Positions 1,395 to 44,721 are shown, counted from the stretch's first letter. The stretch is 64,000 bases of DNA from an uncultured Eubacteriales bacterium (GCA_934365155.1 CAKRMZ010000002.1:36645-100644), one strand, 5' to 3'. The notes: generated by a model from the letters alone, not told the origin. Translations and numbers: made by a program.

Positions 1395-2393
1395 TTATAT
1401 TTTTTGCCACAAGTCAACGGCGAGTGCATTCAGCGCCGCCGCAATCGGAGGATTGGCGTTTTGTTGATTTTGATGCTCTTGTACAGCGGTATACCACCGG
1501 CAGAGAACTGCAGTCGGAAGTGTGGGGAGCAGGAGTTTTTCGTTTATGCCGCACTTTTGATATCGGATTTCCGCCGCAAGCAATTCTGAGGTCTTTTCCA
1601 AAAGATAAGCATAGTCTTCACGGTTTTTGACCCGTGAATTCAAATACAGCAGAATATTTACGAAAGACATGGCGGAGGAATCAAAAAGGCTTAAAAAGTG
1701 TTTGGCGGTTTCTTCGGCTTTGATCATACCCGAAGCAGGTGATTTCGCTTCACTGTCAAAATAAGCGATTGCTTTACCGATGCATCCCTCAAAAAGTTCA
1801 AGCAGCTTCTCGGTTTTGGAATTTTGCTTTTGAAAAACAGAAGCGATGCTTTCCGTTTGGGCACGCAAATACCGGAGCATTTCTTCGTTGGATAGCGGTT
1901 CCGTGGAAAGAATTTTGCAACGGGAGCGTATGGTTTCCAATAGGTTTTGAGCACGGTCGACAATTAAAAAAAATACGCTGCCTGCCGGGGGCTCTTCTAA
2001 CATTTTCAGTAAAGCATTCTGTGCTTGCACCGTCATTTTTTGTGCGGGCTTTATAATATACGCACGGATCTCAAGGTCGTTCGGTTTGATATAAAGGCTG
2101 TCCGCAATGCTTCGTATGGCGTCTACGCCGATGGTTTGTCGGTGATCTTTGGGACTTATGAAATGAACATCGGGCGATTCATGGCCTAAAATTTTTCGGC
2201 AACTTTCGCAATTAAGGCAAGGCTGATCCGAAGATTTACATGCCAGTGCTGCAATAAAGTGAATCGCGCAGAATGTTCGTCCGCTGCCCTCTTTTCCTTC
2301 GATGATATAGGCATGGGTGCAGGTATGATGAATCAGTTCTTTTTGAAATTGTGATTTGATGGTATCGTTTCCGAATATAGAATCAAAAGACAC
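1395..2393 (-). CDS. holB: DNA polymerase III subunit delta' (HolB)
   Basis: A clamp-loader AAA+ pattern is present: HAYIIEGKEGSGRT P-loop-like segment, CxxCxxC zinc module (CLNCESCRK) and SRC motif (IRSRC). The start is set at GTG 2393, behind GGAGGAAAGG. The track start at 2414 is possible. Confidence 0.85.
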   Translation of the reverse strand: MSFDSIFGNDTIKSQFQKELIHHTCTHAYIIEGKEGSGRTFCAIHFIAALACKSSDQPCLNCESCRKILGHESPDVHFISPKDHRQTIGVDAIRSIADSLYIKPNDLEIRAYIIKPAQKMTVQAQNALLKMLEEPPAGSVFFLIVDRAQNLLETIRSRCKILSTEPLSNEEMLRYLRAQTESIASVFQKQNSKTEKLLELFEGCIGKAIAYFDSEAKSPASGMIKAEETAKHFLSLFDSSAMSFVNILLYLNSRVKNREDYAYLLEKTSELLAAEIRYQKCGINEKLLLPTLPTAVLCRWYTAVQEHQNQQNANPPIAAALNALAVDLWQKI

Positions 2394-2598
2394 GATATTC
2401 CTTTCCTCCTGCACATTTTAAAGCGGTTCGCCGGACCGACATTTTTTTCATTCAAAGCGGAGAAGTGATAAAAAATACTTTTTTAACCATTTAATTATAC
2501 CATATATAAAAAGTGATATCAATATACTTTTTCGTCGAAACAAAATATCCAGAAATGTGAATATTTTGAAAACTATAAAGAAATCGGGTTCGGACGGC

Positions 2599-2627
2599 TT
2601 GACATAAAAAAATAAAGTGATTATACT
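2599..2627 (+). promoter_or_regulatory. Sigma-A type promoter for marR/ABC operon
   Basis: TTGACA (2599-2604), a 17-nt spacer, then TATACT (2622-2627). Confidence 0.6.
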
Positions 2628-2699
2628 ATATAAAGTAAACGCTTGATTGTTAAGCGCTTAATAATAAAAATAAAGAGGGTGTTGTATCTTTTGCGGGAT

Positions 2700-3236
2700 A
2701 TGAAATCATCAGAAAATCAAGCAGATTTGGCCCATGAGACGATTTCGCGTTTTATGGCAATTTGGGTGCTGCGCCGCTACGCCGTTCACAAGTCCATGGA
2801 CGGTGGAGGGCTTTATTTCGGGCAACTTCCGATTATGGAATTTGTGATGGAGAATCCGGGCTGCACGCAAGTGGAGATTGCGCAGAAATTGGGCATTACA
2901 ACCGCCTCGGCCTCTTTATCAACAAAAAGACTGCAGAATGCGGGGTTTATTTCCAAGCAGGTCGACAAAGAGAATTTGCGGTGCAATAGGCTCTATATTA
3001 CTCCTGCAGGAAAAAATGCTGCGTTGCAAAGCCGCGAAGTGTTTGACCGGGTTGACAGCAAGATGCTGAGCGGATTTTCGGATTCGGAATTAGAAACGAT
3101 GATTGCCTATTTCGGCCGGATTATTTCCAATTTCACCGACGGTTCCATGGAAAGGCTGGATAAATCAGCGGTTATGTCTATTAACGAGCAAATGGAAAAG
3201 ATCGGTGACGCAGGATGCCCAGAGGATACGGAATAG
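2700..3236 (+). CDS. MarR family transcriptional regulator
   Basis: A winged-HTH MarR pattern is present (GCTQVEIAQKLGITTASASLSTKRLQNAGFISKQVDKENLRCNRLYITPAG). The start is ambiguous: ATG 2700, or upstream TTG/GTG back to 2643. Confidence 0.8.
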   Translation: MKSSENQADLAHETISRFMAIWVLRRYAVHKSMDGGGLYFGQLPIMEFVMENPGCTQVEIAQKLGITTASASLSTKRLQNAGFISKQVDKENLRCNRLYITPAGKNAALQSREVFDRVDSKMLSGFSDSELETMIAYFGRIISNFTDGSMERLDKSAVMSINEQMEKIGDAGCPEDTE

Positions 3237-3300
3237 CATTTCTGCTTATTGAAAGACGGCAAACAATGAGAAGACTAAATCGGAGAAAGGAAATATATTT

Positions 3301-5043
3301 ATGATAAAACGGCTTTTCGGTTGTGTTCGAGAATATAAAAGAGCAACGGTTCTGACATTGATATTTATTGTTCTCGAAGCGGTGATTGAAACGTTCATAC
3401 CGTTCATAACCTCGGATCTTGTCAACCGGATCGAGGGCGGGACTACCGTCGGTGTGATTGTAAAAATCGGATTGGTTTTATTTGCAATGGCGATTTTGTC
3501 GCTTTCCTGCGGCGGAATTGCAGGCTTTACCTGTGCCAGGGCTTCGGCCGGATTTGCTAAAAATCTGCGCCACGACATGTTTGAAAGAATACAGAGATAT
3601 TCTTTTGAGAATATTGATAAATTCTCTTCCTCATCCTTGGTTACGCGAATGACAACAGATGTCAGCAACGTGCAAATGGCATTTATGATGATCATACGCA
3701 CGGCGATTCGTGCGCCGCTGATGCTGATTTTTTCAATTGTGATGGCCTATATTTTAGGCGGAGCTTTGGCGACCTCTTTTGTTGTTATTATTCCGCTGTT
3801 GGTCTTCGGCCTTATCATGATTGCCAGAAAAGCGATGCCCGCTTTTCGGCGAGTGTTTAAAAAATATGACCGTTTGAACGAATCCATCGAGGAGAACGTT
3901 CGTGGGATGCGCGTGGTGAAGGGATTCTCCCGCGAGGAGCACGAAAAAGAAAAATTCGGCGCGGCGGCAGAAGATATCCGCAAGGACTTTACCCGTGCGG
4001 AACGCATTGTGGCGCTGAATATGCCTTTGATGCAGTGCTGCCTTTATTTTAATATGATTTTTGTGCTTTTGGTCGGTTCCCGCTTGATTATAACCAGCGG
4101 TGCGCAAACCATCAATGTCGGCGAAATGTCAGCGATGCTGACCTACGGTGTGCAGATTTTGATGCAGCTGATGATGATTTCCATGATTTATGTGATGCTC
4201 ACCATGTCCGGCGAATCGATGAAACGAATTGATGAGGTGCTTACCGAAATACCGGCTTTGCAAAATCCTCAAGCGGCTGTGACGGAAGTTCCGGACGGTT
4301 CGATCGATTTTAACGGGGTTTCCTTTAAGTATTCGGAAAAAGCTGCCAAATACGCTTTGGAAGGGATTGATTTACATATCCGTTCCGGCATGACGGTCGG
4401 TATTTTGGGCGGAACCGGATCCAGCAAATCCACATTGGTTCAGTTGATTCCGCGTTTATATGATGTCACCGAGGGAAGCGTTTGCGTGGGACATACCGAT
4501 GTCCGCGATTATGATATTGAAGCGTTGCGTTGCGCGGTGGCGATGGTCTTGCAGAAAAACTTGCTCTTTTCGGGAACCATTAAAGAAAATCTGCGTTGGG
4601 GTAATGAAAACGCGACGGATGAAGAAATTATAGAAGCCTGTCGTTTGGCGCAGGCAGATGAGTTTGTCCGTTCATTCCCCGACGGTTACGATACCAAAAT
4701 CGAACAGGGCGGCACCAATGTTTCCGGAGGGCAGAAGCAACGGCTTTGTATTGCTCGTGCATTGCTGAAAAAACCGAAAATTTTGATTTTGGATGACTCG
4801 ACCAGCGCCGTTGATACCAAAACCGACCTGCTGATTCGAAAGGGATTTCGTGAATATATTCCGGAAACGACCAAAATTATTATTGCCCAACGAGTGGCGT
4901 CGGTTGAAGATGCCGATCTGATTTTGGTGATGGATAACGGGCGTATTGTTGACAAGGGTACTCACGCGGGGCTTCTTGATCGCTGCGAAATCTATCGTGA
5001 AATCTATTTCCAGCAGACGAAGAAAGCGGGGGATGAGAAATGA
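3301..5043 (+). CDS. ABC exporter, fused permease/ATPase subunit (heterodimeric multidrug-type)
   Basis: An N-terminal six-helix TMD is followed by an NBD with Walker A GGTGSSKST, signature VSGGQKQR and Walker B ILILDDSTSAVD. Confidence 0.9.
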   Translation: MIKRLFGCVREYKRATVLTLIFIVLEAVIETFIPFITSDLVNRIEGGTTVGVIVKIGLVLFAMAILSLSCGGIAGFTCARASAGFAKNLRHDMFERIQRYSFENIDKFSSSSLVTRMTTDVSNVQMAFMMIIRTAIRAPLMLIFSIVMAYILGGALATSFVVIIPLLVFGLIMIARKAMPAFRRVFKKYDRLNESIEENVRGMRVVKGFSREEHEKEKFGAAAEDIRKDFTRAERIVALNMPLMQCCLYFNMIFVLLVGSRLIITSGAQTINVGEMSAMLTYGVQILMQLMMISMIYVMLTMSGESMKRIDEVLTEIPALQNPQAAVTEVPDGSIDFNGVSFKYSEKAAKYALEGIDLHIRSGMTVGILGGTGSSKSTLVQLIPRLYDVTEGSVCVGHTDVRDYDIEALRCAVAMVLQKNLLFSGTIKENLRWGNENATDEEIIEACRLAQADEFVRSFPDGYDTKIEQGGTNVSGGQKQRLCIARALLKKPKILILDDSTSAVDTKTDLLIRKGFREYIPETTKIIIAQRVASVEDADLILVMDNGRIVDKGTHAGLLDRCEIYREIYFQQTKKAGDEK

Positions 5044-6983
5044 ATAAACAACCGAAAGGGATGCCTCGCGGCCCGATGAACGGTCACGGAAAACGAAAAT
5101 TCGATAAGCGTATATTCGGGCGAGTGGTGAAGCTTTTATTCCGTTCCTATCCGGTTCTTGTGCCGATTACGATTTTCTGCATTATCTTTTCTGCGATTGT
5201 TTCCTCCATTCCGTCTGTTTTTCAGGAAAAGGTAATCCGTGTTATCGAAGAATTTTTAAAAAGCGGCTCTACGGATTACGGAGCAGCGTCAAAGCAGATT
5301 TTACCGATGGTGACGATGCTTGCCGTGCTGTATGTAATTTCAATTGCCCTGATTGCGCTGTATCAACAGTTGATGGCTTTTATCACACAAGGCTTTTTGT
5401 GCAAGATGCGCCGAAAGATGTTTGACGGAATGCAGAATTTGCCGATTCGGTATTTTGATACGAATAAGCACGGCAATATTATGAGCCATTATACCAATGA
5501 TATTGATACCCTTCGTCAGTTGGTATCGCAGTCTCTGCCCAGCTTGCTGCAGTCGAGCATTATTGTTGTTTCTGTTTTGTTTATTATGCTTTGGTACAGC
5601 GTTTGGATGACCTTAGTGGTACTGTTAGGCGTTATTCTTATGGCCTTTGTTTCGGCAAAAATCGGCGGCGGATCGGCAAAATATTTTATTCGGCAGCAGG
5701 CTGCTGTCGGCAAGACAGAGGGATTTGTCCAGGAAATGATGAACGGGCAAAAAGTCATTAAAGTATTCTGCCATGAAAAAGAGGCCGAAGCGGATTTTAA
5801 CCGAATCAATGATGAGTTGTATGAAGATACATTCCGGGCAAATGCATATGCCAATACCTTAGGTCCTATCATAATGAATATCGGTAATATCCTGTATGTG
5901 CTTTGCGCGATGATCGGCGGTGTTTTCCTTGCCGTGAATATTTCGAATGTTTCGATTTCCGGTATGGCTTTCGGAATCAGTATTTTAGTTCCGTTTCTCA
6001 ATATGACAAAGCAGTTTACGGGAAACCTAAATCAGGTGTCGCAGCAGATTAACTCCATCGCCATGGGACTTGCCGGTGCACAGCGCATATTTGCGTTAAT
6101 GGATCAGTCTCCGGAGACGGACGACGGATATGTTACTTTGGTGGATGCGAATATTTCGCAAGACGGTACCATTACCGAGGCGGATCATCATACCGGACAT
6201 TGGGCATGGAAACATCCGCACGGCGACGGCACACTGACTTATACCGAATTGCGCGGAGATGTGCGTCTTGTTGATGTGGACTTCGGATATGAAGAGGGAA
6301 AAGAAGTGTTGCACGGCGTATCGGTTTATGCCGAGCCGGGTCAAAAGGTTGCTTTTGTCGGTGCGACCGGTGCCGGTAAAACAACGATCACTAACCTGAT
6401 CAACCGTTTTTATGATATTGCGGACGGCAAAATTCGTTACGACGGAATCAACATCAATAAAATCAAAAAATCGGATTTGCGACGTTCCTTGGGACTGGTG
6501 CTTCAGGAGACCAATCTTTTCAGCGGAACGGTAATGGATAATATCCGATACGGCAAACTCAGCGCAAGCGACGAAGAGTGTCGCCATGCCGCTGTTTTGG
6601 CCGGTGCGGATGATTTTATCAGCCGCTTGCCCAACGGATATGATACCGAGCTTTCCAATAACGGATCGAACCTTTCTCAGGGGCAGCGTCAGTTAATTGC
6701 CATCGCCCGTGCGGCAGTAGCAGATCCCCCGGTTATGATTTTGGATGAGGCGACCTCCTCTATCGATACCCGTACCGAGGCGATTGTGCAGCGCGGTATG
6801 GATAAATTGATGGAGGGACGTACGGTATTTGTAATTGCGCACAGACTTTCCACGGTAATGAATGCGGATGTTATTATGGTGTTGGACCACGGCCGCATTA
6901 TCGAACGCGGAGACCATGAAAAGCTGATGGCACAAAAGGGAGTGTATTATCAGCTTTATACCGGAGCGTTTGAATTAGAGTAG
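5040..6983 (+). CDS. ABC exporter, fused permease/ATPase subunit (partner of previous gene)
   Basis: A 4-nt ATGA start/stop overlap links it to the upstream gene. Motifs are Walker A GATGAGKTT, signature LSQGQRQL and Walker B VMILDEATSSID. Confidence 0.9.
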   Translation: MNKQPKGMPRGPMNGHGKRKFDKRIFGRVVKLLFRSYPVLVPITIFCIIFSAIVSSIPSVFQEKVIRVIEEFLKSGSTDYGAASKQILPMVTMLAVLYVISIALIALYQQLMAFITQGFLCKMRRKMFDGMQNLPIRYFDTNKHGNIMSHYTNDIDTLRQLVSQSLPSLLQSSIIVVSVLFIMLWYSVWMTLVVLLGVILMAFVSAKIGGGSAKYFIRQQAAVGKTEGFVQEMMNGQKVIKVFCHEKEAEADFNRINDELYEDTFRANAYANTLGPIIMNIGNILYVLCAMIGGVFLAVNISNVSISGMAFGISILVPFLNMTKQFTGNLNQVSQQINSIAMGLAGAQRIFALMDQSPETDDGYVTLVDANISQDGTITEADHHTGHWAWKHPHGDGTLTYTELRGDVRLVDVDFGYEEGKEVLHGVSVYAEPGQKVAFVGATGAGKTTITNLINRFYDIADGKIRYDGININKIKKSDLRRSLGLVLQETNLFSGTVMDNIRYGKLSASDEECRHAAVLAGADDFISRLPNGYDTELSNNGSNLSQGQRQLIAIARAAVADPPVMILDEATSSIDTRTEAIVQRGMDKLMEGRTVFVIAHRLSTVMNADVIMVLDHGRIIERGDHEKLMAQKGVYYQLYTGAFELE

Positions 6984-37421: not shown

Positions 37422-39089
37422 ATGAAAACAGATATTGAGATTGCGCAATCGGTAACGATGCAGCCGATTACCGAGATTGCAAAAGCAGCGGCAATTGAGG
37501 AGCAGTATTTAGAGTGTTACGGCAAATATAAAGCCAAAGTGGATCTTTCCTTATTGCGTGACAGCACCAAGAAGGACGGGAAACTGATTTTAGTAACGGC
37601 TATGACCCCGACTCCGGCAGGTGAGGGAAAAACAACCACGACAATCGGTCTGGCGGACGGGATGCGCAGAATCGGGAAAAACGTGGTTGTGGCTCTTCGG
37701 GAGCCTTCTCTCGGACCGGTATTCGGTGTCAAGGGCGGCGCGGCCGGCGGCGGCTATGCGCAGGTGGTTCCGATGGAGGATATCAATCTGCATTTTACCG
37801 GGGACTTTCATGCGATCGGTGCGGCCAACAATTTGCTTGCCGCGATGCTTGATAACCATATTTATCAAGGAAATCGTTTGAATATCGATCCTCGGCGTAT
37901 CACTTGGAAACGCTGCGTAGACATGAATGACCGTCAATTGCGATTTATAACAGACGGATTGGGCGGACGTGTGAACGGTGTTCCCCGGGAGGACGGCTAC
38001 GATATTACGGTTGCATCCGAAATTATGGCGGTGCTTTGTCTTTCTTCGTCTGTTGCCGACTTAAAAGAGCGTTTGGGCAGAATTATTGTAGGATATACTT
38101 ACGATGAACAACCGGTAACCGCAGGGGACCTTCATGCGCAGGGAGCCATGGCGGCGCTGTTGATAGACGCACTGAAGCCGAACCTGGTGCAGACTTTGGA
38201 GCATACACCGGCTTTGGTACACGGCGGTCCCTTTGCCAATATTGCACACGGCTGCAATTCGGTGACGGCAACTAAGTTAGCATTGAAGCTCGGGGATTAT
38301 GCGATCACCGAAGCCGGATTCGGTGCGGATCTCGGTGCGGAGAAATTTTTGGATATCAAGTGCCGTTTTGCGGGACTGCGTCCCTCTGCTGTTGTGGTTG
38401 TCGCAACGATTCGAGCTCTGAAAATGCACGGCGGTCTGGATAAAACCGAACTCAAAAATGAAAATTTAGAGGCTTTAAAGCAGGGGATTCCGAATTTGCT
38501 TCGTCATGTTCACAATATGAAGGAGGTATATCACCTCCCGTCTGTTGTGGCGGTGAACCGCTTCCCGACCGACACGGATGCCGAGATTCGCTTGGTAATG
38601 GAGAGCTGCCGTGAGCTCGGTGTGAACGCGGTGCTTTCCGATGTATGGGCCGAGGGAGGCGCCGGAGGCGTCGAATTAGCCAAAGAGCTTGTCCGACTTT
38701 GCGACGAGCCCAATGACTTCCAATTTGCCTACCCCTTAGACCGGAGTATCGAAGAAAAAATTGAGATGATTGTGAAAAGAATTTACGGCGGCGACGGGGT
38801 TTGTTTTACTCCGACTGCCAAAAAACAGATTGCAAAGCTTCGGGAAATGGGATTTGAACATGTGCCGATATGCATGGCAAAAACGCAGTACAGCTTCTCG
38901 GATGATCCCTTAAAACTCGGGGCGCCGGAGCATTTTACCGTCACGGTACGAAATGTGAAGATTTCGGCGGGTGCCGGATTTGCAGTGGCCTTGACAGGGG
39001 ATATTATGACCATGCCGGGACTTCCGAAAATTCCGGCAGCGGAACGGATCGATGTGGATGATAACGGGAAAATCAGCGGTTTGTTCTAA
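37422..39089 (+). CDS. fhs: Formate--tetrahydrofolate ligase
   Basis: DIEIAQ...[16 protein letters not shown]...[19 protein letters not shown]...[12 protein letters not shown]. Confidence 0.9.
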
Positions 39090-39151: not shown

Positions 39152-39196
39152 AAAAAGGGGAGACTGCTTCTTAAGTGAAGCGGTCTCCCCTTTTTT
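39152..39196. terminator. Bidirectional intrinsic terminator (ends pur-fhs operon and the small minus-strand gene)
   Basis: AAAAAGGGGAGACTGCTTC-ttaagt-GAAGCGGTCTCCCCTTTTTT. Confidence 0.85.
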
Positions 39197-39224: not shown

Positions 39225-39434
39225 TTAACGGCGTGAGCAGCCGCAGCCGCAGCCGGTATTGTTGTTGCTGTTATTATTATCGTCTCTGCTTCCGCAGCGA
39301 TTGCAGCTATTGTGATTTGTGTTGCTACCGCCGATGTTATTGCCGGGACAGTTTGATTCGGATTCTTCCGAACCGCAGCGGCAAAGCAGGAAGCCGGCTA
39401 CAACAATAGCAGTAAGAATGCAGGATTGGTTCAC
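39225..39434 (-). CDS. Small membrane-tethered Cys/Asn/Gly-rich protein (unknown function)
   Basis: The ORF has an AAAGGAA RBS before GTG 39434 (alternative TTG 39455), its own promoter and a terminator. One hydrophobic helix (CILTAIVVAGFLLC) is followed by RCGSEESESNCPGNNIGGSNTNHNSCNRCGSRDDNNNSNNNTGCGCGCSRR. Confidence 0.5.
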   Translation of the reverse strand: MNQSCILTAIVVAGFLLCRCGSEESESNCPGNNIGGSNTNHNSCNRCGSRDDNNNSNNNTGCGCGCSRR

Positions 39435-39508
39435 GATATCGTTCCTTTCTTTCAAGAAATAGTAAGACGTTCCGGTCGCTTTATCTTGGAAAAGGCCTTA
39501 CAGTGTTT

Positions 39509-39537
39509 ATAGTATGCAAAAAATAAAAAAATGCCAA
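39509..39537 (-). promoter_or_regulatory. Candidate promoter of the small Cys-rich gene
   Basis: On the minus strand: TTGGCA, 17 nt, TACTAT. It lies back-to-back with the csoR promoter. Confidence 0.45.
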
Positions 39538-39546
39538 CTGAAGCTA

Positions 39547-39575
39547 TTGACATATACCCCACAGGGGTATATAAT
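39547..39575 (+). promoter_or_regulatory. csoR-copA promoter with embedded CsoR operator
   Basis: TTGACA (39547-52), a 17-nt spacer, then TATAAT (39570-75). The spacer is the perfect inverted repeat ATATACCCC-aca-GGGGTATAT (39552-72), the GC-tract dyad typical of CsoR operators. Confidence 0.8.
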
Positions 39576-39618
39576 AACGGTGAAACCGGAACATACTGAA
39601 TACAGGGAGGAAACGGAA

Positions 39619-39915
39619 ATGGAAAAAGAATGCTGCAAACGGATTAAAAAGCGATCCTCTGAAGAATATGAACGACTGATTCATCGCTTAAATCGGATTG
39701 AGGGACAGATTCGCGGTATTCGAAAAATGGTGGAGCAGGACGCATACTGTGCGGATATTCTGGTCCAGTCGGCGGCGGTCAATGCCGCTTTAAATTCCTT
39801 TTCCAGAGAATTGCTTTCAAATCACATTAAAAGCTGTGTAGTTGCGGATATTCGGAAGGGCAATGAGGAAAAAACAGACGAATTGATTTCACTTTTAAAA
39901 AAGTGGATGCGATAA
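39619..39915 (+). CDS. csoR: CsoR family copper-sensing transcriptional repressor
   Basis: LIHRLNRIEGQIRGIRKMVE, with C-H-C ligand positions (YCADIL; HIKSC). AGGGAGG RBS before ATG 39619. Confidence 0.9.
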   Translation: MEKECCKRIKKRSSEEYERLIHRLNRIEGQIRGIRKMVEQDAYCADILVQSAAVNAALNSFSRELLSNHIKSCVVADIRKGNEEKTDELISLLKKWMR

Positions 39916-39946: not shown

Positions 39947-42448
39947 GTGAAACAATATCAAGTTACAGGAATGAGCTGTGCTGCCTGCAGTGCGCGGGTA
40001 GAACGCGCGGTTCGCGCCGTCAAAGGCGTGAAAGATTGTTCGGTCAATCTGTTGACACAGTCTATGTCTGTGGAAGGTGATGTATCGAGCGATGTCATTA
40101 TCTCGGCAGTAGAGGCGGCAGGCTACGGTGCAGCATTGAAGGACGGTATGCAAGCGGAAAATCAGAAAAATAAAGCTGCAGACTCTTCCCGAAAAGAGAT
40201 CTCCGCTTTGGCTACCCGTCTGATTATATCCCTTGTTTTTTTGGCCGCACTGATGTATATTTCGATGGGGCATATGATGTGGTCTTGGCCGCTACCGAAG
40301 GTGCTTTCGGAAAATCATTTGGCTCAGGGGATTTTGCAGATGCTGCTCTGCATTGCCGTGATGGTCGTCAATCAACGCTTTTTTGTCAGCGGTGTCCGGG
40401 CACTGAAAAACCGCTCGCCCAACATGGATACGTTGATTTCCTTAGGATCGGCGGCTGCTTTCGGCTACAGTGTATATGCGCTGTTCCGTATGACCGGCAG
40501 TCATGAGGATGCCATGAAATGGATGCACGAATTCTATTTTGAATCCGCGGCGATGATTTTAACATTGATTACACTCGGAAAAATGCTGGAAGCCCATGCC
40601 AAGGGCAAAACAACCGATGCCATAAAAAGTTTGGTTAAGCTGCGCCCCGATACGGCCAGCGTGCTGCGGGACGGCCAATTCGTGAGAGTTTCCGTGGATG
40701 AGGTTCGCATCGGAGACGAATTTGAAGTGCGCCCGGGTGAGAGCATTCCGGTAGACGGAACGGTATCGGAGGGTAACAGCACAGTCGATGAGTCGGCGCT
40801 GACAGGCGAAAGTGTTCCGGTAGACAAGGCTCCGGGCGATTCTGTTTTTGCGGCTACCAAAAACAGCTCCGGATATTTGCGCTGCCGCGCGGATCGGGTC
40901 GGTAAGGATACGACGCTTTCGAAAATCATTCAGATGGTCAGCGATGCTTCTGCCACAAAGGCACCGGCGCAAAAAATCGCAGACCGGGTTTCTGCCGTTT
41001 TCGTACCCGTCGTATTGGCAATTGCCGCGGTGACAATTGCGGTATGGCTGATTTGCGGCTACAGTGTGGGGTTCGCTTTGGCAAGAGGAATTTCCGTGCT
41101 GGTTATATCCTGCCCGTGTGCGCTGGGACTTGCGACCCCGGTGGCTATTATGGTAGGCAGCGGAGTCGGTGCCAAGCACGGAATCCTGTTTAAAACCGCT
41201 GTTTCGCTTGAACAGACCGGAAAGATGAAAATTATTGCTTTGGATAAGACCGGAACCATTACACAGGGAGAACCCGATGTGACCGATGTGCTGGCCGAAT
41301 CCGAAGAGAAGCGAGAAAAGCTTTTGAAGAGCGCGCTCAGCTTGGAATCCAAGAGCGAGCATCCGTTGGCCGGAGCGGTGGTACGCTATTGCTCCGAAAA
41401 AGGCATTGTCGCGGAAAATGCGGAAGAATTCACGATTCTGCCCGGCAGCGGACTTTGGGGTCTTGTCGGAGGAAAGCGTATCTACGGAGGAAAACTTGCG
41501 TGGATATCGACACTTTCTTCTGTGCCGGAGTCCGTGCGACAAAAAGCAAAAGAGCTGTCCGCCGCCGGTAAAACTCCTCTCTTCTTTGCCATGGAGCAAG
41601 AATTTTTGGGTATCATTGCCGTTGCTGACACGATTAAGCCGGACAGTCCCGAGGCAATTCGGACGCTTCGGAATATCGGCATGGATATTGTGATGATTAC
41701 AGGGGATAATGAAAATACGGCTCGTGCTATTGCGGCAAAAGCAGGTATCGAAAATGTTGTGGCCGGGATTCTTCCGGACGGCAAAGAAGAAACGGTACGC
41801 ACATTGAAAAAGCAGGGGGCTGTTGCGATGGTCGGTGACGGAATCAATGATGCCCCGGCGTTGACCTCCGCCGATATCGGAATTGCAATCGGTCGCGGCA
41901 CGGATGTTGCGGTGGATGCCGCCGATATTGTTCTGATGAAAAACAGTCTTATGGATGTGGCCGGTGCGGTGCAGCTCAGCCGTGCAACGCTGCGAAATAT
42001 CCGCGAGAATCTGTTCTGGGCATTTTTCTACAATACACTCGGTATTCCGCTTGCCGCCGGCGTATTTATTCCTATTTTTCTCTGGCAGCTTAACCCAATG
42101 TTCGGTGCCGCCGCCATGAGCCTTTCCAGCTTTTGCGTGGTTATGAACGCTCTGCGTCTCAATTTTTGGCATTATCCGAAAATGAGGGGAAAGGACCCCA
42201 AAGAAGAAAAAAATGATCGTATATCCAATATACAGGAGGAATTGCATATGGAAAAGAAATTTAATGTTTCCGGTATGATGTGTTCGCATTGTGAATCCAG
42301 AGTCCGCGCGGCCCTTTTGGAGCTTGACGGCGTTGCGGATGCCGTTTGCAGCGCAAAGGACGGTACGGTTCGCGTTACACTGCGTACGGAGGTTTCGGAT
42401 CAGGCACTGAAGGAATGCATTCAGAAGGCCGGATATAGCGTGCAATAG
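39947..42448 (+). CDS. copA: Copper-translocating P1B-type ATPase with N-terminal and C-terminal HMA domains
   Basis: N-terminal HMA motif GMSCAACSARVE, TM CPC motif (SCPCALGLATP), DKTGT, GDGINDAP, and a C-terminal HMA motif GMMCSHCESRV. The start is GTG 39947 (GGAG 9 nt upstream) or TTG 39938. Confidence 0.9.
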   Translation: MKQYQVTGMSCAACSARVERAVRAVKGVKDCSVNLLTQSMSVEGDVSSDVIISAVEAAGYGAALKDGMQAENQKNKAADSSRKEISALATRLIISLVFLAALMYISMGHMMWSWPLPKVLSENHLAQGILQMLLCIAVMVVNQRFFVSGVRALKNRSPNMDTLISLGSAAAFGYSVYALFRMTGSHEDAMKWMHEFYFESAAMILTLITLGKMLEAHAKGKTTDAIKSLVKLRPDTASVLRDGQFVRVSVDEVRIGDEFEVRPGESIPVDGTVSEGNSTVDESALTGESVPVDKAPGDSVFAATKNSSGYLRCRADRVGKDTTLSKIIQMVSDASATKAPAQKIADRVSAVFVPVVLAIAAVTIAVWLICGYSVGFALARGISVLVISCPCALGLATPVAIMVGSGVGAKHGILFKTAVSLEQTGKMKIIALDKTGTITQGEPDVTDVLAESEEKREKLLKSALSLESKSEHPLAGAVVRYCSEKGIVAENAEEFTILPGSGLWGLVGGKRIYGGKLAWISTLSSVPESVRQKAKELSAAGKTPLFFAMEQEFLGIIAVADTIKPDSPEAIRTLRNIGMDIVMITGDNENTARAIAAKAGIENVVAGILPDGKEETVRTLKKQGAVAMVGDGINDAPALTSADIGIAIGRGTDVAVDAADIVLMKNSLMDVAGAVQLSRATLRNIRENLFWAFFYNTLGIPLAAGVFIPIFLWQLNPMFGAAAMSLSSFCVVMNALRLNFWHYPKMRGKDPKEEKNDRISNIQEELHMEKKFNVSGMMCSHCESRVRAALLELDGVADAVCSAKDGTVRVTLRTEVSDQALKECIQKAGYSVQ

Positions 42449-42457
42449 TAAAAAGAT

Positions 42458-42505
42458 CCATTCGGAGGACTGTTTTCTTGTCTTCCGAATGGGTCAATTT
42501 TTTTT
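42458..42505 (+). terminator. Intrinsic terminator after copA
   Basis: CCATTCGGAgGAC-tgttttctt-GTCtTCCGAATGG followed by GTCAATTTTTTTT. Confidence 0.8.
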
Positions 42506-42562
42506 ACTTAATATGGGAAAAAGTCGAATTCGAATAAAAGCGGCTGCAATTTTGTCATACAC

Positions 42563-42591
42563 TTGACAAATCGCATAAAATTGGGTACAAT
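42563..42591 (+). promoter_or_regulatory. Sigma-A type promoter of sanA/GT2 operon
   Basis: TTGACA, 17 nt, TACAAT. Confidence 0.6.
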
Positions 42592-42674
42592 ATGGTTTAC
42601 AGCATGTTTTGAAAAATTAAGGTATTGTTCTGAGGATGACGGGGCGGCTCCTTGTCTCAGGAAAGGAATCAACT

Positions 42675-43409
42675 ATGGCCTCCAAAAAAAGAGTACTGTG
42701 GAAACGTTTGCTGTTTATTTTTTTTGCGTTGCTTTTGTTCGGATTTCTTGTTTTGATTGGTTTGAATTTATATATTCGCGGACAAACCCAAGGCTATATT
42801 GTTTCTGTTGACGAGGCAAAATCATTATCAGACGTTGACTGCATTTTGGTGCTTGGATGTGCCGTTCGGGGTGAGACTCCCAGCCTGATGTTAAAGGATC
42901 GGCTGGACCGTTCGGTTGAGCTTTTTCATGAAGGCGTTTCCTCCAAATTGCTTATGAGCGGTGATCATCGCGGACCGGATTATGATGAAGTCAATGTAAT
43001 GAAAGCATACGCTGTGAATCAGGGAGTTCCTCCCGAGCTTGTCTTTATGGATCACGCGGGATTTTCAACGTATGACAGTGTCTATCGTGCATTGCACGTA
43101 TTCGGAGTGAAACGCATGATTATTGTTTCACAAGAATATCATTTATACCGTGCCCTCTATATTGCACACAGCTTAGGCATTGATGCGTATGGGGTTTGCG
43201 CGGCGGACATTTCCTATCGTGGCGATTTCTACCGTGAAGCGCGGGAAATGGTTGCCAGAGTCAAAGACTGTGTATTGTGTCTTTTTAAGCCGACTTCCGA
43301 ATATTTGGATGATTTTACTCCGATCAGCGGAAACGGCCATATCACCGATGACGGAACAAATTATAAATCCATGCGTCCAATCTCTGAGAGAATGCTCATT
43401 TTGTCATAA
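42675..43409 (+). CDS. sanA: SanA/YdcF (DUF218) family membrane-anchored protein
   Basis: An N-terminal TM is followed by DCILVLGCAV...SLMLKDRLD...LLMSGDHR...YDEVNVM, the DUF218/SanA pattern. Confidence 0.75.
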   Translation: MASKKRVLWKRLLFIFFALLLFGFLVLIGLNLYIRGQTQGYIVSVDEAKSLSDVDCILVLGCAVRGETPSLMLKDRLDRSVELFHEGVSSKLLMSGDHRGPDYDEVNVMKAYAVNQGVPPELVFMDHAGFSTYDSVYRALHVFGVKRMIIVSQEYHLYRALYIAHSLGIDAYGVCAADISYRGDFYREAREMVARVKDCVLCLFKPTSEYLDDFTPISGNGHITDDGTNYKSMRPISERMLILS

Positions 43410-43455
43410 TAACGAGACAAAAAATTTATTGAAAATTACACGGAGTATCGTGCTC

Positions 43456-44721
43456 ATGCTAACCGAAATTATTCGATCGATCAATGCGGCGATCGGAATA
43501 GCCTTTTTTATATGTTATTTTTATCAGCTGGTCTACATATTTATTCCCTTTATAAAAAAGGAAAAGCCGCATCGCCCTGTTTCTTTACACCGATTTGCGG
43601 TTCTGATCTCCGCCCGGAATGAACAGGCGGTTATCAGCCATTTGATCGGCAGTATCAAGAATCAGGATTATCCTCAGGATCTTATTACTATTTTTGTTTG
43701 TGCAGACAATTGCGCGGATCGCACCGCTGACCGTGCGCGTGAGGCCGGCGCTGTTGTATACGAGCGAAACGATTTGGATCATATCGGCAAAGGCTGGGCT
43801 TTAAATTTCCTGCTTTCGAAGATTGATACGGATTACGGAATGGATGCATTTGACGGTTATTTTGTTTTTGATGCGGATAACCTGTTGAAATCCAACTATA
43901 TTACGGAAATGAATAAGACTTTCTGTGACGGATATCGGGTAATTACCAGTTACCGCAATTCCAAAAACTACGGAGATAACTGGATTTCCGCCGGTTACGG
44001 CTTATGGTTTTTGAGAGAATCTAAGTTTTTGAACCATTCCCGCATGCTGCTTGGCACCAGCTGTTCTGTCTCCGGAACGGGCTTTTTCTTCTCTTCCGAG
44101 GTCCTCAAAAAGATCGGAAATTGGAATTTCTTTTTGCTTACAGAGGATATTGAGTTTACCACTTACAATATCTGCGAGGGAGAAATTATCGGATATTGCA
44201 AAGACGCTGTGGTATATGATGAGCAGCCGACCAAATTTATTCCCTCTTGGAATCAGCGCATTCGGTGGTCCAAAGGCTTCTTGCAAGTTTTCGGAAAATA
44301 CGGCAAAAGGCTGTTGAAGGGAATTTTCTGTAAGCGGAGCTTTTCTTGCTTTGATATGACCATGGTTACCATGCCGGCAATGGTTTTAATGAGCGTTGAG
44401 ATTTTGCTGAATTTTGTAATGGGCTTTATTCAGTTGAACCAGGGCATGACGTTTTTAAGCGCTTTTACGGATTTCTTCTTTGTACTGCTAAATAAATATC
44501 TGCTGATGTTCTTTGTCGGTGCGTTAACCACAATTACGGAATGGAAATATATCCGTGCTACGGTTTTTAAGAAAATTCTGTATATGTTTACTTTCCCGAT
44601 TTTCTTATTTACATATATTCCGATTGCGGTTGCTGTTTTATTCTGCAAAGTGGAATGGAAGCCGATTTCTCATGATGTCGGACTTTCTGTAGAGGAATTG
44701 GAATCCAGACAATTCAAATAA
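43456..44721 (+). CDS. Integral-membrane family 2 glycosyltransferase with Q(R)xRW motif (processive beta-glycan synthase type)
   Basis: FAVLISARNEQ, VCADNCADRT, FDADN, TEDIEF and NQRIRWSKG, with N-terminal and multiple C-terminal TM helices. ATG 43456 sits 10 nt after GGAG. The track start 43180 lies inside sanA. Confidence 0.8.
   Translation: MLTEIIRSINAAIGIAFFICYFYQLVYIFIPFIKKEKPHRPVSLHRFAVLISARNEQAVISHLIGSIKNQDYPQDLITIFVCADNCADRTADRAREAGAVVYERNDLDHIGKGWALNFLLSKIDTDYGMDAFDGYFVFDADNLLKSNYITEMNKTFCDGYRVITSYRNSKNYGDNWISAGYGLWFLRESKFLNHSRMLLGTSCSVSGTGFFFSSEVLKKIGNWNFFLLTEDIEFTTYNICEGEIIGYCKDAVVYDEQPTKFIPSWNQRIRWSKGFLQVFGKYGKRLLKGIFCKRSFSCFDMTMVTMPAMVLMSVEILLNFVMGFIQLNQGMTFLSAFTDFFFVLLNKYLLMFFVGALTTITEWKYIRATVFKKILYMFTFPIFLFTYIPIAVAVLFCKVEWKPISHDVGLSVEELESRQFK

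Follow-up and report, generated by a model that had tools for sequence, protein, structure and literature searches.

We describe a small open reading frame (ORF) that lies divergently beside the csoR-copA operon of a human-gut Acutalibacteraceae/Oscillospirales lineage, and we tentatively read it, with a probability of roughly 0.45, as a real, lineage-restricted (orphan) small gene that may encode an exported or membrane-anchored, disordered Cys/Asn-rich peptide; this reading does not imply control by CsoR. Overall, the balance tips slightly towards the ORF being a real translated gene, because start signals and a hydrophobic N-terminus rarely combine by chance. Speaking against a real gene are the low-complexity sequence and an n-region that carries no net positive charge. 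In our assessment the start-region tests outweigh the negative evidence, most of which is absence of data.

In the window (the whole stretch of 64,000 nucleotides of DNA that was analysed), the ORF occupies the minus strand at 39225-39455, in a 529-bp spacer between fhs (formate-tetrahydrofolate ligase; 37422-39089, plus strand), which is itself preceded by purine-biosynthesis genes, and csoR (39619-39915, plus strand). It extends for 76 aa from a TTG codon (39455) to a TAA stop (39227-39225), or for 69 aa (39225-39434, minus strand) if translation begins at an in-frame GTG. GTG39434 is the more likely start, because it is the only one with a Shine-Dalgarno-like site: AAAGGA at 39443-39448 (minus strand), with the core AGGA at 39446-39443, embedded in AAAGGAA and separated from the GTG by an 8-nt spacer. 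At a distance suitable for the ORF there is a sigma-70-like promoter candidate, TTGGCA-17-TACTAT (39509-39537, minus strand), which is defined by its consensus match alone (9 of 12 positions) and which we count in favour of a real gene. A second promoter-like site, on the plus strand and also matching at 9 of 12 positions (TTGGAA-16-TATAGT, 39486-39513), lies upstream of the main csoR promoter and overlaps the -10 region of the minus-strand candidate.

On the other side of the ORF, 29 nt downstream of its stop, a hairpin with 19-bp arms (39152-39195, both strands) forms a bidirectional intrinsic terminator in common with fhs. Its minus-strand fold is strong (-32 kcal/mol, z = -6.9) and is followed by the U-tract UUUUUAUU, and the hairpin can therefore terminate both fhs and the small ORF. 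The ORF of 69-76 aa, its ribosome-binding site, its promoter-like elements and the shared terminator had all been described in a first-pass annotation of this DNA, and each of them is borne out here. The terminator stem is polymorphic among strains, with variants at 39160, 39161 and 39190. A39161G and C39190T keep the pairing as G-U in the plus-strand (fhs) RNA and give an A-C or C-A mismatch in the minus-strand RNA, a hint that selection may bear chiefly on the fhs orientation of the terminator. G39160A puts an A-C mismatch into the plus-strand RNA of the stem. The possibility that the ORF region is instead an RNA element was considered and rejected: Rfam gave sub-threshold chance matches on the terminator only, and the fold z-scores of the region (-1.35 for the minus strand, -0.31 for the plus strand) are not significant.

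The length of the ORF is no greater than expected by chance, since 24% of dinucleotide shuffles of the 529-bp spacer contain an ORF that reaches 76 aa or more, and 36% contain one that reaches 69 aa or more. It may accordingly be asked whether the ORF arose by chance in non-coding spacer DNA. On this view, the 300 bp that separate the fhs terminator from the csoR promoter would be filler of low complexity, which the acquisition of the csoR-copA module may have left behind, and the gene-like signals would be coincidental. We hold this to be a genuine possibility, although we lean against it. The whole-codon log-likelihood of the ORF is low, as a chance ORF would predict: at 0.054 it falls at the 6th percentile of real 76-codon segments (mean 0.26) and at the 94th percentile of off-frame segments. 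Synonymous-codon choice, which is partly driven by the TGC-GGC repeat, is at the 28th percentile of real gene segments and above 96% of off-frame segments. The whole-codon score is thus equivocal, and the synonymous choice leans to coding. The G+C content of the ORF region, 0.49, is also coding-like; it compares with 0.40 and 0.37 for windows that contain spacer (39450-39749 and 42450-42749, respectively).

It is the start region that fits a chance origin least well. Of 3000 dinucleotide shuffles of the spacer, one placed a Shine-Dalgarno-like site before a start that also led into an N-terminal hydrophobic window with a Kyte-Doolittle mean of 2.5 or more, and the hydrophobic window alone reached 2.5 in 0.6% of spacer shuffles; such p-values are optimistic, because the features were picked after the sequence had been viewed. 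None of 150 off-frame ORFs of 60-130 aa had a 13-residue mean of at least 2.5 within the first 32 residues. By the same rule, a Shine-Dalgarno-like start was present in 30 of the 42 long ORFs in the window (71%) and in 13 of the 150 off-frame ORFs (8.7%). The window has 15 intergenic gaps, and of all their ORFs of 30 aa or more only the small ORF has both a Shine-Dalgarno-like site and a hydrophobic N-terminus. The opposite strand was also considered. At 39237-39356 the plus strand contains a stop-bounded frame of 40 codons, rich in Ala, Ile and Val (AAAAAAGIVVAVIIIVSASAAIAAIVICVATADVIAGTV), with a codon score (0.27) higher than that of the ORF itself; it was rejected as a gene since no ATG, GTG or TTG start follows the upstream stop, and it is probably the mirror image of AAY, TGC and GGC codons.

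The 76-aa product, MKERNDIVNQSCILTAIVVAGFLLCRCGSEESESNCPGNNIGGSNTNHNSCNRCGSRDDNNNSNNNTGCGCGCSRR, contains nine Cys residues, eight of them from C25 onward, and its Cys density of 12% is diluted by Asn-rich low complexity. A hydrophobic segment, C12-C25 (CILTAIVVAGFLLC; 39381-39422, minus strand), is predicted to be a signal-peptide-like h-region or a short membrane anchor. Its 13-residue Kyte-Doolittle mean is 2.82, and its uninterrupted run of 13-14 residues would better suit the h-region of a signal peptide than a full transmembrane helix. The segment is followed by a tail rich in Cys, Asn, Ser and Gly (C25-R76; 39228-39383, minus strand), in which the eight Cys are arranged as C25-R-C27, C36, C51-N-R-C54 (a CxxC at residues 51-54) and C69-G-C71-G-C73 (CGCGC, residues 69-73). 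The earlier picture of one hydrophobic helix and a tail of about 50 aa with eight Cys therefore stands as to the presence of both parts, whereas the hydrophobic run is short for the full transmembrane helix. AlphaFold2, run on the single sequence without an alignment and thus a weak test, modelled a helix at residues 7-23 and gave pLDDT < 50 for residues 23-76, which is consistent with an intrinsically disordered tail.

The two possible starts differ in what precedes the hydrophobic segment. A cleavable Sec-type signal peptide would have an n-region with positive charge, followed by an h-region of 7-15 residues. From the TTG, the n-region is MKERND, with a net charge of 0; from the GTG, which is the start associated with the Shine-Dalgarno site, the charged n-region is missing altogether. 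C25-R-C27 fits the -3/-1 small-residue rule of signal peptidase I, and the peptide may be exported and released, or kept anchored. No lipobox ([LVI]-[ASTVI]-[GAS]-C, of the PROSITE PS51257 type) is found in the translation of the ORF, because position -1 is Leu (F-L-L-C25) or Arg (L-C-R-C27) and not Gly, Ala or Ser; C12 lies too near the N-terminus and is preceded by N-Q-S. Within the ORF, inverted repeats of 12-13 nt, 85-92% complementary (39257-39268 with 39397-39408, and 39301-39313 with 39403-39415), pair codons of the hydrophobic segment (T-A-I-V-V-A) with the reverse complement of codons of the Asn-rich tail (S-N-N-N-T). They may have arisen by chance in low-complexity DNA, or may be the trace of an old inverted duplication.

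The layout of a hydrophobic run and then Cys-Gly-Ser-Glu-Glu-Ser is that of lipoproteins in this clade, as is seen in the N-termini of a GDSL lipase in this window (LISCGSKQTS) and of a solute-binding lipoprotein upstream of csoR in another Acutalibacteraceae genome, L057 (LSACGSDDS). This raises the question of whether the ORF is the decayed 5′ remnant of a lipoprotein gene, consisting of a former signal peptide and Ser/Asp/Glu linker from which the lipobox has been destroyed and the body lost. The segment ending in FLLCRCGSEESES can be aligned with the corresponding segments of the two lipoproteins (ending in MLSACGSDDS for the 500-aa L057 protein), the product finds its best NCBIfam match in the YhcN/YlaJ lipoprotein family, whose N-terminus it matches at a non-significant E = 0.12, and a single T insertion paired with a single C deletion separates TGC-CGC (Cys-Arg) from GCC-GCC (Ala-Ala), with which an L-A-A-C lipobox would be regained. 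The likeness is, however, limited to generic features of signal peptides, and neither a donor gene nor a homologue was found in the protein-database searches. Moreover, 49 further codons follow the Cys and end just before the terminator, which is tidy for a deletion scar, and G+C and codon choice are still coding-like. We consider such a remnant improbable. With regard to L057, the gene divergent from csoR (2325-3827, minus strand) encodes a 500-aa lipoprotein that is solute-binding-like in appearance, and its signal peptide (CIICGVALLISMLSACGSDDS) is the sole sequence in 80 csoR loci that aligns with the small ORF. This tblastn match upstream of csoR was rejected as a relative of the ORF, as it corresponds to the signal peptide of an unrelated protein.

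No homologue of the product was detected in any of the collections searched. A word-index search of 5.8 billion protein clusters gave none and did not retrieve the product itself; full phmmer against 1.84 billion representatives gave 0 matches; and there was none in JGI metagenomes, viral contigs (six-frame), or plasmids and phages (tblastn). Pfam contained 0 families at E <= 1, and the sole PDB match was an L37e zinc ribbon at E of about 0.5, which is not significant. Around the 80 csoR loci of other GTDB species, tblastn and ORF mining showed no similar ORF (about 85 loci when the nearest relatives are included), and the Cys-rich ORFs upstream of those 80 csoR genes are unrelated junk. The two nearest CsoR relatives have upstream spacers of about 200 bp with no small ORF. 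When the 529-bp spacer was compared by blastn with the window and the collected loci, there were chance matches of 13-18 nt alone. Nor was the ORF ever called by gene callers in the same-species contigs examined, where the 529-bp gap is left empty, and the exact product is absent from recorded called genes.

These absences agree with a chance ORF, and so does the difference in fhs and csoR synteny in the nearest relatives, from which it follows that the fhs-csoR junction is young. The same facts limit what the absences can say. The nearest Fhs relatives are at most 85% identical and have other genes downstream, the nearest CsoR relatives are at most 73% identical, and neither neighbourhood matches; the lack of conservation is only weakly informative because the sampled relatives include no close sister species with the same synteny. 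Formally, then, the ORF is not conserved, which is an outcome that the first-pass annotation had named as counting against a copper-related gene, and the weight of that outcome is reduced accordingly.

Comparison within the species draws on 17 independent contigs that are 99.3-99.9% identical and fall into three haplotype groups. The spacer is 529 bp in all of them, and none of the 13 contigs that cover the ORF fully has an indel or a disrupted frame in it. Three variants lie within the ORF: TCG to TCA, synonymous (5 of 15 contigs); TGC to TAC, Cys51Tyr, which breaks the CxxC (5 of 14 contigs) and is fixed in one of the three haplotype groups; and AAC to ACC, Asn5Thr (1 of 15 contigs), which would fall in the spacer between the Shine-Dalgarno site and the GTG if the latter is the start. 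The presence of Cys51Tyr in a third of strains argues against the CxxC being essential. The pN/pS of the ORF is 0.53, based on 3 changes only, as compared to 0.17 for purL, fhs, csoR and copA together, and the two non-synonymous changes and one synonymous change have about the same likelihood in a neutral model as in a constrained one. A chance ORF would thus be compatible with the variation, including the loss of a Cys. SNP density is 3/231 (1.3%) in the ORF and 9/298 (3.0%) elsewhere in the spacer, a non-significant difference (Fisher p = 0.24), with values of 0.6-1.3% for genes.

The terminal Cys-Gly run is encoded by a perfect hexanucleotide repeat, (GCAGCC)x3.2 at 39237-39255 (TRF, 100% matches), whose minus strand specifies G-C-G-C-G-C. 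The (GCAGCC)x3 repeat had been pointed out in the first reading of the sequence, together with the suggestion that its number might vary among strains. The repeat is there, but the variation is not: copy number is constant in 13 full-length strain sequences, and (GCAGCC)x3 is identical in 14 of 14 covering contigs, unlike what would be seen at a contingency (phase-variable) locus.

The copper operon next to the ORF, and the CsoR operator, were soundly identified in the earlier annotation. CsoR matches PF02583 (E = 1.9e-30); copA (39947-42448, plus strand) encodes a Cu(I) P1B-ATPase with HMA domains at the N- and C-terminus; and the csoR promoter (39547-39575, plus strand), which agrees with the consensus at 12 of 12 positions, holds the CsoR operator ATATACCCCACAGGGGTATAT (39552-39572) inside its spacer. 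The operator agrees at 20 of 21 positions with the published consensus ATATACCCCTNAGGGGTATAT, which is that of streptomycete type-2 CsoR, and includes the TAC-N9-GTA motif of the G-tract pseudopalindrome that is typical of CsoR operators; the contacts of both CsoR tetramers lie within this consensus (PMC3902906). With up to 3 mismatches allowed, it is the sole such site in the 64-kb window. The distance between the operator palindrome and the -35 hexamer of the minus-strand promoter candidate is 14-16 bp, in agreement with the figure of about 15 bp given previously, and the two divergent -35 hexamers stand back to back, 9 bp apart.

Several additional observations concern the operon and its flanks. 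Some public gene calls extend CsoR to 122-133 aa by taking upstream starts (133 aa in L098, L101 and L103; 122 aa in L102). The additional codons of the 133-aa form, from an ATG at 39514 (39514-39915), would read across both the operator and the promoter of csoR; the 98-aa CsoR that begins at 39619, behind a strong GGGAGGA ribosome-binding site, is the sensible form. Downstream of copA there is a DUF218 gene and then a family-2 glycosyltransferase gene. By longest-ORF coordinates these two (42636-43409 and 43180-44721) overlap by 230 nt, because the first possible start was taken; public calls start the glycosyltransferase at about 43452.

Given this location, a copper-specific function comes readily to mind, with the product acting as a membrane-tethered, metallothionein-like Cu(I) sink or chaperone together with CopA, and possibly co-regulated through the CsoR intergenic region. 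The ORF is divergent from and adjacent to csoR-copA, with the closely spaced -35 hexamers noted above, and its tail has eight Cys, including the CxxC and CGCGC. The operon here has no separate copZ gene, and one of the two nearest relatives examined (L108, 72% CsoR identity) has a 65-aa HMA (CopZ-like) gene directly after copA (6016-6213). There are also precedents in the membrane-anchored chaperone CupA and in the small, unannotated Cu metallothionein MymT (PMC7558416). We nonetheless consider a copper function of this kind unlikely. The ORF is absent upstream of the roughly 85 other csoR-copA loci, 5 of 14 contigs have Tyr in place of C51 of the CxxC, and no metallothionein, HMA or cupredoxin model in Pfam, NCBIfam or PDB was matched by the product. 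As for regulation, the single operator of the 64-kb window lies within the csoR promoter spacer and does not overlap the candidate promoter of the ORF, as it would in a member of the CsoR regulon; it is centred about 60 bp upstream of the presumed transcription start of the ORF. Repression of the ORF by CsoR is not expected, on geometry alone, because the operator is wholly within the csoR promoter and the contacts are within the consensus; occlusion of the ORF promoter is likewise not expected at that distance. Of the earlier proposal of a copper sink or chaperone, then, the position beside csoR-copA stands, while the absence of the ORF at other csoR loci, the operator outside the ORF promoter and the C51Y change in about a third of strains tell against it.

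A more elaborate version, which we regard as a long shot, would have the ORF be a recently born species-specific gene, either de novo or heavily remodelled, whose disordered, thiol-rich tail, either exported or tethered to the membrane, buffers Cu(I) or other thiophilic metals at the envelope beside a CsoR-CopA system that lacks CopZ, in effect a family-less, membrane-tethered metallothionein.

The small size of the product, its richness in Cys and its Gly/Cys-rich C-terminus could also suit a precursor of the RiPP or bacteriocin type, in which the Cys would be modified after translation. The first-pass annotation had suggested a RiPP-like precursor while remarking that no modification enzyme is nearby. 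The remark is upheld by a Pfam scan of the neighbours over about 10 kb on each side, and for that reason the suggestion finds no support. This distance takes in purine-biosynthesis genes, fhs, csoR-copA, DUF218, GT2, a dehydrogenase, pfk, an MBL-fold gene and yfhO, but no radical-SAM enzyme, lanthipeptide synthetase, cyclodehydratase, peptidase-ABC exporter or immunity gene. Furthermore, no precursor family in NCBIfam or Pfam is matched, and the N-terminus is a hydrophobic signal rather than a leader. We judge a precursor of this type highly improbable.

For the orphan small gene that we favour, the following scenario may be proposed, in which we infer the transcription, translation, export, topology and any thiol or metal chemistry of the product from the sequence. 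The ORF would be transcribed from a weak promoter of its own, of the sigma-70 type (39537-39509), which stands back to back with that of csoR, and transcription would end at the hairpin in common with fhs; translation would begin at GTG39434, behind the AGGA Shine-Dalgarno site. The 13-14-residue hydrophobic segment would then take the N-terminus into or across the membrane in the manner of a Sec signal, with C25-R-C27 as a possible site for signal peptidase I. The remaining peptide of about 50 residues, disordered, thiol-rich and composed largely of Asn, Ser, Gly and Asp, would be released or held at the membrane surface.

If the gene is real, it would be one more instance of an unannotated, lineage-specific small exported protein in a gut anaerobe, and small genes of low complexity and high Cys content would be seen to escape standard gene callers. 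If the product were to bind copper as well, it would be a new, family-less metal buffer of the envelope beside a copper-efflux operon. At best, the ORF would represent a family-less, lineage-specific small exported protein from a single species, and its value is that of a candidate and not of a discovery.

Finally, we compare the ORF with known systems. By the tests that were run, it belongs to none of the following: metallothioneins, lipoproteins, the CsoR regulon, cupredoxin-type chaperones, RiPP precursors and contingency loci. Partial resemblances to several of these are nevertheless evident. CopL is a surface Cu-binding lipoprotein and an example of the lipobox type. Bacterial lipoproteins such as this one have, in order, an n-region, an h-region, Cys-Gly-Ser and an acidic or Ser-rich linker, as does the small ORF, but the latter differs in having no Gly, Ala or Ser at -1 and no mature domain after the linker. 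The L37e zinc ribbon has the arrangement CxxC-x14-CxxC, which is mimicked by C51-x2-C54-x14-C69-x-C71 of the ORF; the database match is that with E of about 0.5, the intervening loop in the ORF is an Asn run, and C51 is Tyr in a third of strains. The metallothioneins SmtA and BmtA are likewise short and Cys-rich, and the ORF product could, like them, form metal-thiolate complexes; the zinc-finger-like fold of SmtA is absent from the ORF, and neither Metallothio_Pro or any other Pfam family nor a PDB structure is matched significantly.

The two closest parallels come from copper systems. CupA shares with the ORF a single N-terminal membrane anchor (predicted in the present case), Cys ligands and a place beside copA and the repressor (PMC7558416). 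CupA is, however, a folded cupredoxin-like beta-barrel and is co-transcribed within its operon, whereas the ORF is divergent, has its own candidate promoter and is predicted to have a disordered tail; no cupredoxin domain of the CupA type was matched, and the single-sequence AlphaFold2 model, a weak test, has pLDDT < 50. MymT is cytosolic and copper-induced and has no hydrophobic N-terminus, in contrast to the signal-like N-terminus, the Asn-rich tail and the lack of an operator in its own promoter that characterize the ORF. Otherwise, MymT of M. tuberculosis resembles the ORF in its small size, its Cys richness, its initial lack of annotation and its link to a CsoR-family response (PMC7558416), and each of the two has motifs of the CxxC or CxC type. 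MymT, the Cu(I) metallothionein of mycobacteria that belongs to the RicR (CsoR-like) regulon, provides a precedent for a small Cys-rich gene that had gone unannotated (PMC7558416).
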